DNA of 64,000 bases from assembly GCF_965641715.1 (NCBI RefSeq), contig NZ_OZ282453.1; one strand, given 5' to 3'. Below, piece by piece: positions 36,001 to 57,000 of the stretch; within the stretch, counting starts at the first letter, position 1; each line of letters opens with the position of its first letter. The stretch comes from Escherichia coli. GTDB taxonomy: Bacteria; Pseudomonadota; Gammaproteobacteria; Enterobacterales; Enterobacteriaceae. The position numbers are program-made.

Positions 36001-39000
36001 TACAACACGGAAATAAACTGGCATTCAGAGTCGATTGCCAGTTGCAGGCTGGCATTATCTTTTACGGCAGCAATCACCGGATTCTGGCGGAGCAGGTGTA
36101 AGAGGGGCATAAATTATCCTTATTATTTATCCAAAGCGGTAGGTGATGCCGAATCCGGAAGGTGGATAGCGCCACTGTTGTAGTGTTGATTCGTCGCACA
36201 GCAAACGGCAGGTGCCGCACTCAAGGCAACCGCGATAATCAACACGCAAGTCGCCTTCCGGCGTGAGCGCAAAAAGACCTGCCGGGCAGGCGTTAATCAA
36301 CCGTTCTGCCGTCTGGCGCTCAACGGAGTCAGCCGGAACAATGTGCGGCGCATCAGCAACGCGCCAGAGATTACGGGCTACAGACATCGCAGACTCCTGA
36401 TAACATCGCCCGCCAGATGCCACAGGCCATGACGACGTAAATGACGCCAGAATAACTGGCGCAGCGGTGGAACAGGTTTATCACCCTGATCCCATAAATC
36501 GCGGGAAATATCCTGCATTAACGCAGGCCACGCCCGATACCAGCCAGGGCGTTGCAAAAGCGCCGGAACATGCTGATAACGTTGTAGAACATCCCACAGC
36601 AGGCTGCGCTCTACGTTGTGATGATAAAGCGGAAACAGATTTTGCGGCTCGCGGTGCTGGCAGGCGCTTATCAGTGTTTGTGCCGCCGCCTGCGCGCCAG
36701 TTAGCGCCGTATCCATGCCGCGCACGGAAATTCCGGTATTGACGCAACTGCGCAACGCATCGCCTACCAGCAGCCAGCCGTTACCGGCGTATTGCACTGG
36801 CATACTGTGCAAGCCACCTTCTGGCACCAGATGCGCACCATACTCCAGTGATTCCGTGTTTTTGATAAGCGGGCGCACTGCCGGATGCGCTTTAAAGCGA
36901 GTCAGCAGCTCGCTTGCCGGAACACGACTTTGCGTAAGGGAAGAGAGCGGGCAAACAATCCCTAACGAGAGCGTTTGTTGATTAGTATAAAGAAATGCGC
37001 CGCCGGGAAAGTCATCACAGATTCCGCCGCTGAACAGCAACGCTGCGCCTTCGTTATTCTCCAGATGAAAACGTTCTTCAATAGCGGATGTTTCCAGCGA
37101 CAGCACTTCTTTGATCCCCAACGCCATCGCTTCGCCAGCAGGACGAGTCACTAATCCGTGACGTTCAGCCAGGACGCTGTTGGCACCTTCTGCCAGCACC
37201 ACATAACGGGCGCGGAGAATATCGTCACCACAAATGACACCACACACCCTGCCGTCTTCTTCATACAGAGCATCCACCGTCGCACCAGGGATGCATTCGA
37301 CACCTTCTTTTTCGGCTTCGGCAACCAGCCACGGATCGAACCGTGCACGTAATACACTCCAGGATTCACCGCCGGGCTGTAAGCTGGAAAACGTCGTTGC
37401 GCCATCGGGCGTTAACAGGGAAAGGCTTTCGTGAGTGATGCGTCGTTCAAGAGGCGCGGTCAGATGAAATTGCGGGAGGAGTTCCGCGAGTGCATGGGTA
37501 TATAACCGCCCGCCGGAAAGATTTTTGCTGCCGGGGATTTCAGCGCGTTCCAGTAACAAAACGGATAAACCCGCTCGCGCGCAGCGTAACGCGCAAGCGG
37601 TGCCTGCAATACCGGCACCAATAATAATAATGTCGCAGTCGTCTTCCATGTCATGCCCCAGATATCCTGAACACAACACCCTAACATAGCGTTACTTAAG
37701 GGAAATTGACCGCCGACACACTCTTATCATTCGCCGCGATAGATACAACCAGCGGTGCAGGTTTCTTTTACCATCACCGCACTTAACAGCGGCACAACGG
37801 GTTTAACCTGATCCCAAATCCATTTTGCTAAAACTTCGCTGGTTGGGTTTTCCAGACCTGGAATATCATTGAGATAATGGTGATCGAGGCGCTCATAAGT
37901 TGGCTTAAACGCCGCTTTTAGTTCAGCGAAATCGATAATCCAGCCCGTATGCGGATCGACTTCCCCGGTAATTTCCAGTCGCACCATAAAGGAATGCCCG
38001 TGCAGGCGACCACATTTATGCCCTTCCGGGACGTGTGGTAAGCGGTGAGCGGCTTCGAAGGTGAAATCTTTAAATAACGTGGTGGACATCATAATTTCTC
38101 TACAGGACGATAAAACCGCCGTAGAGTACCGGAAAGGCTGTTTTTTCGCATTATCTAAAACGACTTTGTTGCGCAAAATCGCTGATTTATCTTAATGATT
38201 GGCTAAATTCATTTGTTTTTCATTAGGTTGGTTAATCTATTTTGTTGTTAAAGACTATTGCTAAAACAGGTTAGTCGATTTGGTTATTAGTTATCGCTAT
38301 CCCGTCTTTAATCCACACCGTTCACCCCGTTAACCTTACCTTCTCTTCTGTTTTATGGGCGCTGACAGGGCGCAGAAACAGCTTTGCTTACTGGAACATA
38401 ACGACGCATGACGACACAGGTCCCACCTTCCGCGTTGCTTCCGTTGAACCCGGAGCAACTGGCACGCCTTCAGGCGGCCACGACCGATTTAACTCCCACC
38501 CAGCTTGCCTGGGTTTCTGGCTATTTCTGGGGCGTACTCAATCAGCAGCCTGCTGCGCTTGCAGCGACGCCAGCGCCAGCCGCAGAAATGCCGGGTATAA
38601 CTATTATCTCCGCCTCGCAAACCGGCAATGCGCGCCGGGTTGCTGAAGCATTACGCGATGATTTATTAGCAGCAAAACTGAACGTTAAGCTGGTGAACGC
38701 GGGCGACTATAAATTCAAACAAATCGCCAGCGAAAAACTGCTCATCGTAGTGACGTCAACGCAAGGGGAAGGGGAACCGCCGGAAGAAGCCGTCGCGCTG
38801 CATAAGTTCCTGTTCTCCAAAAAAGCGCCGAAGCTGGAAAATACCGCTTTTGCCGTGTTTAGCCTCGGCGATAGTTCTTATGAATTTTTCTGCCAGTCCG
38901 GGAAAGATTTCGACAGCAAGCTGGCGGAACTGGGCGGTGAACGCCTGCTCGACCGTGTCGATGCCGACGTTGAATACCAGACCGCTGCCAGCGAGTGGCG

Positions 39001-54000: not shown

Positions 54001-57000
54001 GAGATGTATGAGTTCCGCGATCGTACGGCGAAAGCCTACGGCTGCGAGCTGCTGGTGCATAAAAACCCGGAAGGCGTGGCGATGGGGATTAATCCATTCG
54101 TGCACGGCAGCGCGAAACATACCGATATTATGAAAACTGAAGGCCTGAAACAGGCACTGAACAAATACGGTTTTGATGCCGCCTTCGGTGGTGCGCGCCG
54201 TGACGAAGAGAAATCCCGTGCTAAAGAGCGAATCTACTCTTTCCGTGACCGCTTCCATCGCTGGGATCCGAAAAATCAGCGCCCGGAGCTGTGGCACAAC
54301 TACAACGGGCAAATTAACAAAGGCGAAAGCATCCGCGTCTTCCCGCTCTCTAACTGGACCGAGCAGGATATCTGGCAATACATCTGGCTGGAAAATATCG
54401 ACATTGTGCCGCTGTATCTCGCTGCGGAACGTCCGGTTCTGGAACGCGACGGTATGTTGATGATGATTGATGACAACCGTATCGACCTGCAACCGGGCGA
54501 AGTGATCAAAAAACGGATGGTGCGTTTCCGTACGCTGGGCTGCTGGCCGCTGACCGGTGCGGTGGAGTCAAATGCACAAACACTGCCGGAGATCATCGAA
54601 GAGATGCTGGTTTCCACCACCAGTGAACGTCAGGGCCGCGTGATTGACCGCGACCAGGCGGGGTCTATGGAGCTGAAAAAACGTCAGGGGTATTTTTAAG
54701 ATGAACACCGCACTTGCACAACAAATCGCCAATGAAGGCGGCGTCGAAGCCTGGATGATTGCGCAACAACATAAAAGCCTGCTGCGTTTTCTGACCTGTG
54801 GTAGCGTCGATGACGGCAAAAGTACCCTGATTGGTCGCCTGCTGCACGATACCCGCCAAATCTACGAAGATCAGCTCTCATCGCTGCATAACGACAGTAA
54901 GCGTCACGGCACCCAGGGCGAAAAGCTGGATCTGGCACTGCTAGTGGACGGCCTGCAAGCTGAGCGCGAACAGGGCATCACCATTGACGTGGCTTACCGT
55001 TATTTCTCTACCGAGAAGCGTAAATTTATTATCGCCGACACCCCAGGGCACGAGCAGTACACCCGCAATATGGCGACTGGCGCATCGACATGCGAACTAG
55101 CGATCTTACTGATCGATGCCCGTAAAGGCGTACTCGATCAAACCCGTCGTCACAGTTTTATCTCCACACTGTTGGGGATCAAACATCTGGTCGTGGCGAT
55201 CAACAAAATGGATCTGGTGGATTACAGTGAAGAGACGTTCACCCGTATTCGTGAAGATTATCTGACCTTTGCCGGGCAGCTGCCGGGTAATCTGGATATC
55301 CGCTTTGTGCCGCTCTCCGCACTGGAAGGTGACAACGTGGCTTCGCAAAGTGAAAGTATGCCGTGGTACAGCGGTCCGACACTGCTCGAAGTGCTGGAAA
55401 CCGTGGAGATCCAGCGAGTGGTGGATGCCCAGCCAATGCGCTTCCCGGTGCAGTACGTTAACCGCCCAAATCTCGATTTTCGTGGCTACGCCGGAACGCT
55501 GGCATCCGGTCGCGTGGAAGTCGGGCAACGTGTAAAAGTGCTGCCCTCTGGTGTGGAATCAAACGTCGCGCGGATCGTGACTTTTGATGGTGATCGCGAA
55601 GAAGCCTTTGCCGGAGAAGCGATCACCCTGGTGCTGACGGATGAGATCGACATCAGCCGTGGCGATCTGCTGCTGGCGGCAGACGAAGCGTTACCAGCTG
55701 TGCAGAGCGCGTCGGTGGATGTGGTATGGATGGCGGAACAGCCGCTTTCCCCGGGCCAGAGTTATGACATCAAAATTGCCGGTAAGAAGACGCGTGCTCG
55801 TGTTGATGGCATTCGTTATCAGGTTGATATTAATAACCTTACCCAACGCGAAGTTGAAAACCTGCCGCTGAACGGCATCGGCCTGGTGGATCTCACTTTT
55901 GACGAGCCACTGGTGTTAGATCGTTATCAGCAAAACCCGGTTACCGGTGGGCTGATTTTTATCGATCGCCTGAGCAATGTGACCGTAGGTGCCGGTATGG
56001 TGCAGGAGCCAGTTAGCCAGGCAACTGCTGCGCCATCTGAATTTAGTGCATTCGAACTGGAATTGAATGCCCTGGTTCGCCGCCACTTTCCACACTGGGG
56101 CGCGCGCGATTTGCTGGGGGATAAATAATGGCGCTGCATGACGAAAACGTCGTCTGGCATAGCCATCCGGTCACTGTGCAACAACGCGAGCTACACCACG
56201 GTCATCGTGGTGTAGTGCTGTGGTTTACCGGCCTCTCCGGGTCCGGTAAATCAACGGTTGCCGGGGCGCTGGAGGAGGCGTTACATAAACTCGGCGTCAG
56301 TACGTATCTGCTGGATGGCGATAATGTTCGCCACGGATTATGCAGCGATCTCGGTTTTAGCGATGCCGATCGTAAAGAGAATATCCGTCGCGTCGGTGAA
56401 GTGGCGAATTTGATGGTTGAAGCCGGACTGGTGGTGCTGACCGCATTTATCTCGCCACACCGCGCCGAACGCCAGATGGTTCGCGAACGCGTAGGAGAAG
56501 GGCGCTTTATCGAAGTGTTTGTCGATACGCCGCTGGCGATTTGCGAAGCCCGCGATCCCAAAGGCTTATATAAGAAAGCGCGTGCCGGTGAACTGCGCAA
56601 CTTTACGGGAATAGATTCCGTTTACGAAGCGCCTGAATCGGCAGAAATTCATCTCAATGGTGAACAATTAGTAACAAATTTGGTACAGCAATTATTAGAT
56701 CTGTTGAGACAGAACGATATTATCAGATCCTGAGACACCACCGGGTTTCCATGCCCGGTTCGTCAAAGTAACAGGATCAAATATGCGTAATAGCCATAAC
56801 ATTACACTAACAAATAACGACAGCCTTACTGAGGATGAAGAAACCACATGGTCACTGCCTGGTGCCGTGGTCGGTTTTATCTCTTGGTTATTTGCGCTGG
56901 CGATGCCGATGTTGATTTATGGCTCTAACACGCTGTTCTTCTTTATCTACACCTGGCCTTTCTTTCTGGCACTGATGCCTGTCGCGGTAGTGGTGGGGAT

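Follow-up and report, generated by a model that had tools for sequence, protein, structure and literature searches.

How a CRISPR-Cas locus came to lie between two operons of sulfate assimilation, and which of the genes found between them arrived with it, is the question raised by this stretch of DNA (64,000 nt, hereafter the window), a segment of the Escherichia coli chromosome with the classical CRISPR-I locus adjoining iap. It was at this locus, next to iap, that Ishino and co-workers are said to have first seen CRISPR repeats in 1987. An earlier note on the window had placed the end of cysJIH at 42727 and the start of cysDNC at 53791, and the ORFs bear out both coordinates. The conserved left flank, cysJIH (38408–42727, plus strand), comprises cysJ (38408–40207), cysI (40207–41919) and cysH (41993–42727), and the conserved right flank, cysDNC (53791–56733, plus strand), comprises cysD (53791–54699), cysN (54701–56128) and cysC (56128–56733); the names were assigned from 99–100% protein identity with RefSeq-annotated E. 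coli loci, and CysH matched NCBIfam TIGR02057 (344.6 bits). The 11,063 bp between them (42728–53790) contain a type I-E cas operon that is complete, a CRISPR array with 11 repeats and the aminopeptidase gene iap (52502–53539, 345 aa; NCBIfam NF007568, 705 bits). The two cys operons and cas3-cas2 all share one strand, and iap, between the array and cysD, is on the opposite (minus) strand. The note had described the interval as holding only CRISPR-Cas and iap; both are there, but so is a sok RNA with what is left of a truncated hok gene (42850–43006).

The cas operon begins with cas3 (43086–45752, plus strand, 888 aa), which scored 1608.8 bits against NF007248 (cut-off 569) and also matched the cas3_HD and cas3_core models, corresponding to HD nuclease and helicase domains. 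An AT-rich intergenic region (45753–46166), which we take from established knowledge of K-12 to be the Pcas promoter region, separates it from the Cascade genes (46167–50517, plus strand): casA (46167–47675), casB (47668–48150), cas7e (48163–49254), cas5e (49257–49931) and cas6e (49918–50517). Their products, Cse1/CasA, Cse2/CasB, Cas7e, Cas5e and Cas6e, matched in order NF007247, TIGR02548, TIGR01869, TIGR01868 and TIGR01907. The adaptation genes follow on the same strand (50533–51736), with cas1e at 50533–51450 (TIGR03638, 363.8 bits; 305 aa as read here, 289 aa from the RefSeq start at 50581) and cas2e at 51452–51736 (TIGR01873, 141.7 bits). Between the cas2 stop codon and the first repeat lies the 105-nt leader (51737–51841), and beyond it the CRISPR-I array (51842–52481, plus strand; 0 matches expected by chance), which has 11 repeats of 29 nt and 10 spacers with a 61/62-nt period. 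Each of the eight Cas proteins scored above its NCBIfam I-E cut-off and all cas reading frames are intact; Cas3, an ordered Cascade, Cas1e/Cas2e beside a leader and array, palindromic 29-nt repeats and 32–33-nt spacers together define the system as type I-E. A second array (25349–26353, plus strand; 17 repeats, 0 expected by chance) has the same repeat and orientation and belongs to the same I-E system. Because this array is outside the sandwich, the insertion of a single block between the cys operons, as proposed in the earlier note, does not cover the whole system.

The window locus is the low-GC E2 or K-12-type variant of the I-E system, and its frequency was surveyed in 5,426 complete E. 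coli genomes. E2 was present in approximately 1,120 of these (casA-cas6e at least 80% covered), and casA-cas6e was 95–100% identical in 1,178 genomes; the window copy was 100.0% nucleotide-identical to that of E. coli 33F4. A deeply divergent I-E variant, E1, occupied the site in approximately 2,430 genomes (2,429), and a clean cas-less cysH-hok-iap junction was found in approximately 1,110 (1,111, about 20%). Within E. coli, the E2 cassette thus alternates both with an empty site and with E1. The window differs from K-12 itself; the best complete genome reached only 98.0% identity across the full region, since spacers differ and the cysJIH flank is mosaic, with 500-nt bins of cysJIH falling to 93.8% identity with 33F4 while the cas genes were 100% identical.

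Base composition was profiled across the region, where the note had contrasted an AT-rich cas promoter region with the flanking cys genes. The contrast is real, with GC values of 0.30 for the cas3-casA spacer and 0.29 for the leader as compared to 0.52–0.56 for the cys genes, and the deviation spans the whole cas operon rather than the promoter alone. GC3 of the eight cas genes ranged from 0.35 to 0.43 (0.376 for cas3, 0.35–0.42 for the Cascade genes) as compared to 0.546±0.057 for the 36 other ORFs of the window, and all eight fell below 35 of these 36; values for cysJIH and cysDNC were 0.58–0.68 and 0.52–0.63, respectively. GC per cas gene was 0.43–0.51 in the window and 0.49–0.55 for the E1 genes in L003, a locus of that variant, whose GC3 (0.47–0.58) is host-like. 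The region is therefore not uniform, and the E2 cassette is compositionally foreign. The iap gene (GC 0.487) has a GC3 (0.454) at the lower margin of the background range and so is not exonerated by composition alone; it is synteny that exonerates it.

The breakpoints between alleles, placed by blastn and by alignment, delimit a variant-specific cassette of 9,496 bp (42995–52490, plus strand) relative to the cas-less allele, which holds 264 bp at the same position (the hok coding sequence, a terminator and about 50 nt). The left edge truncates hok, the toxin gene, directly behind the start codon. Upstream of this edge, the sok antisense RNA region and hok leader (42850–43006, plus strand) gave a full-length match to Rfam RF01794 (model positions 1–157; 102.6 bits, gathering score 59), and the hok Shine-Dalgarno sequence and ATG (42992–42994) are kept in the window, with the rest of the hok coding sequence missing. 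The hok coding sequence is intact in the cas-less L001 and the E1-type L003 loci. Since the window is identical to hok-bearing alleles up to the ATG and then diverges completely, and since a tblastn search with Hok gave no match at E2-type loci (L002), the window hok/sok is a remnant rather than a functional pair. The right edge falls at an old spacer and degenerate repeat (the last spacer, 52421–52452, and last repeat, 52453–52481, of CRISPR-I) that are common to E1 and E2 alleles. Alleles with and without cas genes become homologous again 11 nt ahead of the stop codon of iap, which leaves iap outside the variable segment. The approximately 50 nt found in Escherichia cas-less alleles (L001 5303–5351) have no counterpart in other genera; compared with the E1 and E2 loci as a possible deletion remnant, they matched neither. 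Conventional insertion scars, a search for which the earlier note had proposed, did not emerge: ARAGORN detected no tRNA or tmRNA gene at 36000–59000, a k-mer comparison of both junction neighborhoods gave no direct or inverted repeat of at least 9 nt, and no ORF in the interval encodes an integrase or transposase, all non-nested ORFs of at least 80 aa being cas genes or iap.

The E1 and E2 variants differ most in their interference proteins, which are 21–34% identical, with CasB too divergent to be aligned. Cas1 and Cas2 are 85–86% identical at the protein level between the two variants and 62–79% at the DNA level, and Cas1 is 84–92% identical among all variants everywhere. A resident cas1-cas2 module shared by E1 and E2, with the interference genes alone being swapped, was rejected on account of this low DNA identity, and the likeness of the Cas1/Cas2 proteins therefore reflects slow protein evolution and not recent sharing. 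The note had also supposed that the CRISPR-Cas subtype varies at this position; every cas operon found there is I-E, in three deeply divergent variants. Relatives of E2 were found in other genera at unrelated loci, always with a lower GC content than their surroundings. One, in a Salmonella island carrying an integrase and transposases (L085; cas GC 0.43), has a Cas7 88% identical to that of E2; a Cronobacter relative has a cas GC of 0.48 as compared to 0.59 in its flanks, and Xenorhabdus carries another at a different locus. Plasmids were considered as a vehicle and rejected, with E2 Cas7 giving no tblastn match above 43% identity among 72,556 PLSDB plasmids.

Synteny was compared across 80 species loci, taken as the best CysH matches and all from Enterobacteriaceae, of which 75 were informative. 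In 44 of these, covering more than 15 genera, cysH and iap are adjacent (43–591 nt apart); a full I-E operon is present in 11, cas3 remnants in two (L005 and L051) and other cargo in 10, with no iap within the available sequence in the remaining eight. The variable presence of cas genes anticipated in the note thus holds both within E. coli and across the family, and these genes are far from universal between the cys operons. The note had gone further and read the cas genes, array and iap as one block inserted into formerly contiguous cysJIH and cysDNC operons. The cas genes and array are indeed accessory and behave as horizontally acquired, but the one-block reading is highly improbable. The GC and GC3 of iap, somewhat below those of the cys genes, and its opposite orientation between the array and cysD are in its favor; however, iap is in place in all cas-less arrangements, including the 1,111 cas-less E. 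coli genomes and the 44 species loci in which it abuts cysH, it falls outside the segment that varies between alleles, and no locus with cysH directly next to cysD was seen. The iap gene is thus a conserved resident and not part of the cassette, and its position between cysH and cysD in loci without cas genes makes cysJIH-iap-cysDNC, rather than contiguous cys operons, the ancestral state.

It might be argued instead that an I-E system was ancestral at this site in Enterobacteriaceae and that the present patchiness reflects repeated deletion with no recent insertion. In Escherichia, Salmonella, Klebsiella, Intestinirhabdus and Phytobacter, E1-like operons lie at this same site close to cysH, their Cas7 proteins being 86–88% identical to that of E. 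coli E1; the host-like composition of E1, the two cas3 remnants and the fact that E1 and E2 alleles have their oldest spacer and degenerate repeat in common also speak for this reading. For the window cassette this cannot hold, given its strongly low GC and the divergence of its interference proteins from those of E1, in contrast to identities of 72–88% with the Salmonella island copy and 54–73% with the Cronobacter and Xenorhabdus copies at other loci; a third deep variant at the same site and the tight, remnant-free cysH-iap junction in 44 of 75 species also weigh against deletion as a general account, which we consider less likely than not. That sulfate assimilation and CRISPR-Cas are functionally coupled, for instance by common regulation or by cysJIH read-through into cas3, could be suggested by the common direction of cysJIH, cas3-cas2 and cysDNC, and is very hard to credit: close relatives of the cassette function at sites with no connection to cys genes, the same gap holds unrelated cargo in other genera, the units are separated by the sok/hok remnant and AT-rich spacers, and about a fifth of E. 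coli genomes have intact cys operons with no cas genes here. That the locus lies between the cys operons reflects chromosomal geography, with no functional link to sulfate assimilation indicated.

The history that we favor, and regard as very probable, is that of an Enterobacteriaceae backbone of cysJIH, convergent iap and cysDNC, in which the E2 cassette occupies a hotspot between cysH and iap as a later replacement of E1. The short gap that separates cysH from iap at their 3′ ends is a hotspot of recombination and integration, at which an E1-like I-E system was probably established long ago. The breakpoints suggest that recombination subsequently put the E2 cassette in place of hok and of the cas genes and leader of E1, with the iap-side join possibly made through array repeats or conserved flank and the cysH-side join by an illegitimate or short-homology event. 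Cas-less alleles could be products of loss or long-standing empty sites, and the strongly conserved cys flanks would probably allow all of these alleles to pass between strains by homologous recombination. It is essentially shown that at least three deeply divergent I-E interference modules, toxin-antitoxin pairs, the T3SS effector gene sopD, an Hcp cluster and other cargo alternate at this gap; in other genera the cargo includes CcdAB, a Gp49/antidote toxin-antitoxin pair, SopD, Hcp and a cold-shock protein. More tentatively, and with rather more room for doubt, the gap may be a family-wide exchange site operating with no integrase of its own, where alleles recombine through the flanks and E2 was seeded from integrase-bearing islands such as that in Salmonella L085.

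The picture in E. coli has already been published (PMC3903273), including how occupancy varies, both I-E variants with their GC contents and the link with hok-sok. A literature search for the cysH-iap gap as a hotspot found no paper. The main use of the present analysis is therefore corrective, in that iap is a resident rather than cargo and the site carries I-E alone; modest extensions are that the cysH-iap gap takes unrelated accessory cargo across genera and that E2-like cassettes are found in mobile-looking islands elsewhere. Little would change as a result, the locus being real and ordinary.

Set against known systems, the window locus resembles classical tRNA/integrase genomic islands in its deviant composition and strain-variable presence, and differs from them in its lack of a tRNA gene, flanking repeats of at least 9 nt and an integrase or transposase. 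The type I-E* locus of the cysH-iap region in Klebsiella (for example, PMC7301723 and PMC6054925) places an I-E operon in the same gap in another genus; such operons were seen here in K. grimontii and K. indica, with an empty site in K. pneumoniae ATCC 13883 (L013), and these loci are E1-like (70–88% identity to E1) and not E2-like. The E. coli cas-E1 or Salmonella-type I-E system shares with the window the subtype, gene order, insertion site, oldest spacer and a near-identical repeat, and differs in its host-like composition, its intact hok and its AT-rich spacer, which is upstream of cas3 and not between cas3 and casA. Almendros et al. 2014 (PMC3903273) gave GC contents of 53.5% for E1 and 45.6% for E2, and reported hok-sok as absent only in E2 and the terminal repeat-spacer as common to both. 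With their K-12-type cas-E2 the window shows no substantial difference beyond a spacer content distinct from that of the listed strains, and the two have in common the iap-cysH position, the eight cas-E genes in the same order, a low GC content, the absence of the hok coding sequence with sok kept, and a CRISPR-II array, the array at 25349–26353 corresponding to their CRISPR-II (ygcE-ygcF) locus.

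The interval between the two sulfate-assimilation operons was laid out from an ORF map, from NCBIfam scans and from RefSeq-annotated E. coli loci whose proteins are 99-100% identical. The cysJIH genes (cysJ, 38408-40207; cysI, 40207-41919; cysH, 41993-42727) and the cysDNC genes (cysD, 53791-54699; cysN, 54701-56128; cysC, 56128-56733), all on the plus strand, lie where the earlier note had placed them, and the 11 kb given there for the interval is correct (11,063 bp). The interval contains, on the plus strand, cas3 (43086-45752), casA (46167-47675), casB (47668-48150), cas7e (48163-49254), cas5e (49257-49931), cas6e (49918-50517), cas1e (50533-51450) and cas2e (51452-51736), an AT-rich leader (51737-51841, unstranded) and a plus-strand CRISPR array (51842-52481) of 11 repeats of 29 nt, the last degenerate, and 10 spacers, followed by iap on the minus strand (52502-53539). 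It does not hold only CRISPR-Cas and iap, as had been thought, since a full-length Rfam match to sok at 42850-43006 had been overlooked. K-12 was rejected as the strain of the window; the species is E. coli. A further array at 25349-26353 (17 repeats), which matches the iap-side array in its 29-nt repeat and its orientation, lies about 25.5 kb from it, beyond cysJIH, with no adjoining cas genes, and corresponds to the E. coli CRISPR-II locus; the CRISPR system therefore extends outside the cysH-cysD interval.

The contrast drawn previously between an AT-rich cas promoter region and the flanking cys genes is real (GC 0.30 in the cas3-casA spacer and 0.29 in the leader vs 0.52-0.56 in the cys genes), but the entire cas operon gives the stronger signal. 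The GC3 of all eight cas genes was 0.35-0.43, compared with 0.546±0.057 for the 36 other long ORFs of the window, and each cas gene fell below 35 of these 36. The GC3 of iap (0.454) falls in the lowest part of the background range. The divergent I-E variant of other E. coli strains (E1) showed host-like values of 0.47-0.58. The only background ORFs near the cas composition were those of a four-ORF cluster on the minus strand at 20595-24184 (GC3 0.39-0.48).

The variable presence of cas genes at this site, as the earlier note had claimed, was borne out among 5,426 complete E. coli genomes. The Cascade genes of the low-GC K-12-type I-E variant found in the window (E2) were at least 80% covered in 1,120 genomes and those of E1 were found in 2,429, and 1,111 carried a cysH-hok-iap junction with neither cas genes nor repeats; loci that are partly deleted or disrupted by IS elements are among the roughly 460 genomes left over. 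The accompanying claim of variation in subtype was not upheld: across the family loci, the cas operons seen at this site were all I-E, in three deep lineages (E1-like, E2 and a third variant whose proteins are 32-60% identical to those of E1, CasB being lowest and Cas7 highest). The interference proteins of E1 and E2 shared 21-34% identity, with CasB unalignable, and their Cas1 and Cas2 proteins 85-86%. A resident cas1-cas2 module common to E1 and E2 was rejected as the source of the latter similarity, since cas1-cas2 DNA is only 62-79% identical and Cas1 identity is 84-92% across every I-E variant examined; the Cas1/Cas2 similarity is therefore read as slow protein evolution.

A CysH scan of species-representative genomes gave 80 Enterobacteriaceae loci, classed by tblastn, of which five were too short past cysH, leaving 75 informative. 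The cysH-iap distance was 43-591 nt in 44 of the 75, a complete I-E operon followed cysH in 11, only a cas3 remnant in two and other cargo in ten, while iap was absent from the available downstream sequence in eight. The ten loci with other cargo carried, among others, CcdA/CcdB, a Gp49-like/antidote pair, Hcp, a cold-shock protein, an aminotransferase cluster and, in Salmonella, SopD. Therefore iap is a conserved backbone resident and the cysH-iap gap a hotspot. In the cas-array-iap block proposed as an insertion, accessory status applies to the cas genes and array and not to iap. Some of the eight loci lacking iap, from Kosakonia and several other taxa (L054, L065, L049, L057 and L069), had unrelated genes after cysH (a GntR regulator, a peptide ABC transporter, a gamma-glutamyltransferase or a fadE-dinB region), with no iap or cysDNC found within 10 kb, which indicates that the chromosome was rearranged there, the break lying at this same 3' position of cysH. 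The iap-cysD gap had a bimodal length of ~250 nt or ~1.6 kb. At the larger size (L011 12178-13536 and ~29 other loci) it includes an additional gene for a CysG-like siroheme synthase (TP_methylase, CysG_dimeriser); this longer form occurs in Enterobacter, Klebsiella, Raoultella, Lelliottia and others and is missing from Escherichia, most Citrobacter and Salmonella.

In composition the cassette is foreign, and it is an accessory segment that can be exchanged; one of its breakpoints falls within hok and the other at the oldest part of the array. Homology to the cas-less E. coli allele stops at the last base of the hok start codon (the G at 42994) and returns at 52491, 11 nt ahead of the iap stop codon, leaving 9,496 bp in the window vs 264 bp in the cas-less allele, the latter comprising the hok CDS, its terminator and ~50 nt matching neither cas allele. 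The sok RNA and the leader of hok persist as orphans at 42850-43006, with the hok ribosome-binding site and ATG (42992-42994) kept and the toxin frame replaced by AT-rich cas3 upstream sequence. In E1-type and cas-less strains hok is intact, the E1 locus beginning its own sequence past the hok terminator, and E1 and E2 have in common the final spacer and degenerate final repeat by iap. Pseudocitrobacter, Kluyvera, Lelliottia and Atlantibacter share a conserved order in which the 3' end of iap comes directly after hok. The ~50 nt from hok terminator to iap stop in cas-less Escherichia alleles (L001 5303-5351; also L004 and L008) had no match in the E1 or E2 loci and is absent from other genera with hok beside iap. 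The insertion scars that the earlier note suggested looking for were not seen: no direct or inverted repeats of at least 9 nt bracket the cassette at its two junctions, and the locus has no tRNA gene or integrase ORF.

E2 Cas7 shared 31% identity with E. coli E1 Cas7, compared with 88% in Salmonella enterica, 73% in Cronobacter, 70-72% in Xenorhabdus and 62-66% in Geobacter-/Desulfuromonas-type proteins. None of the Salmonella, Cronobacter and Xenorhabdus loci lies between cys genes. In S. enterica GCA_900456175.1 (L085 1-21092) the E2-like operon is outside cysH-iap, on an island of low GC that also encodes a NERD/UvrD helicase, a LAGLIDADG protein, a phage-type integrase and two transposases; the Cronobacter operon follows glnK-amtB-tesB, and the Xenorhabdus copy is at yet another locus. 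At a further locus (L084), phage-like genes for methylases, Com, tail fibre and baseplate interrupt the same operon downstream of cas7. Operon GC was below the flanks in Salmonella (0.43) and Cronobacter (0.48 vs 0.59); in Xenorhabdus (0.49) it was not (upstream flank 0.395, downstream flank 0.499). No close E2 relative was found on PLSDB plasmids.

An E1-like system may have been an early occupant of the site, with the cas genes, leader and hok later displaced by the E2 cassette. Alleles, the empty one included, would move from strain to strain via homologous recombination within the conserved flanking cys operons. Such exchange fits the flank mosaicism seen against E. coli 33F4, with which the cas genes are 100% identical (casA-cas6e, 100.0%) and the cysJIH 500-nt bins fall to 93.8%; the lowest bin, 39407-39906 in cysJ, stands among neighbours at 96%-99% and marks the flank as a recombination mosaic.

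The cysJIH-CRISPR-Cas-iap-cysDNC arrangement is thus confirmed as an observation and its reading as an insertion partly supported, and it was already known. Almendros et al. (2014) placed the CRISPR-I locus in the iap-cysH interval, gave GC contents of 53.5% for E1 and 45.6% for E2, found hok-sok in all strains but E2 carriers, described leaders and intergenic regions differing by variant and, on the iap side, a spacer and degenerate repeat common to the variants, and already proposed a replacement model (PMC3903273). Klebsiella papers (e.g. PMC7301723, PMC6054925) name the same "cysH-iap region" for a I-E locus. The present results repeat published points on a larger genome set.
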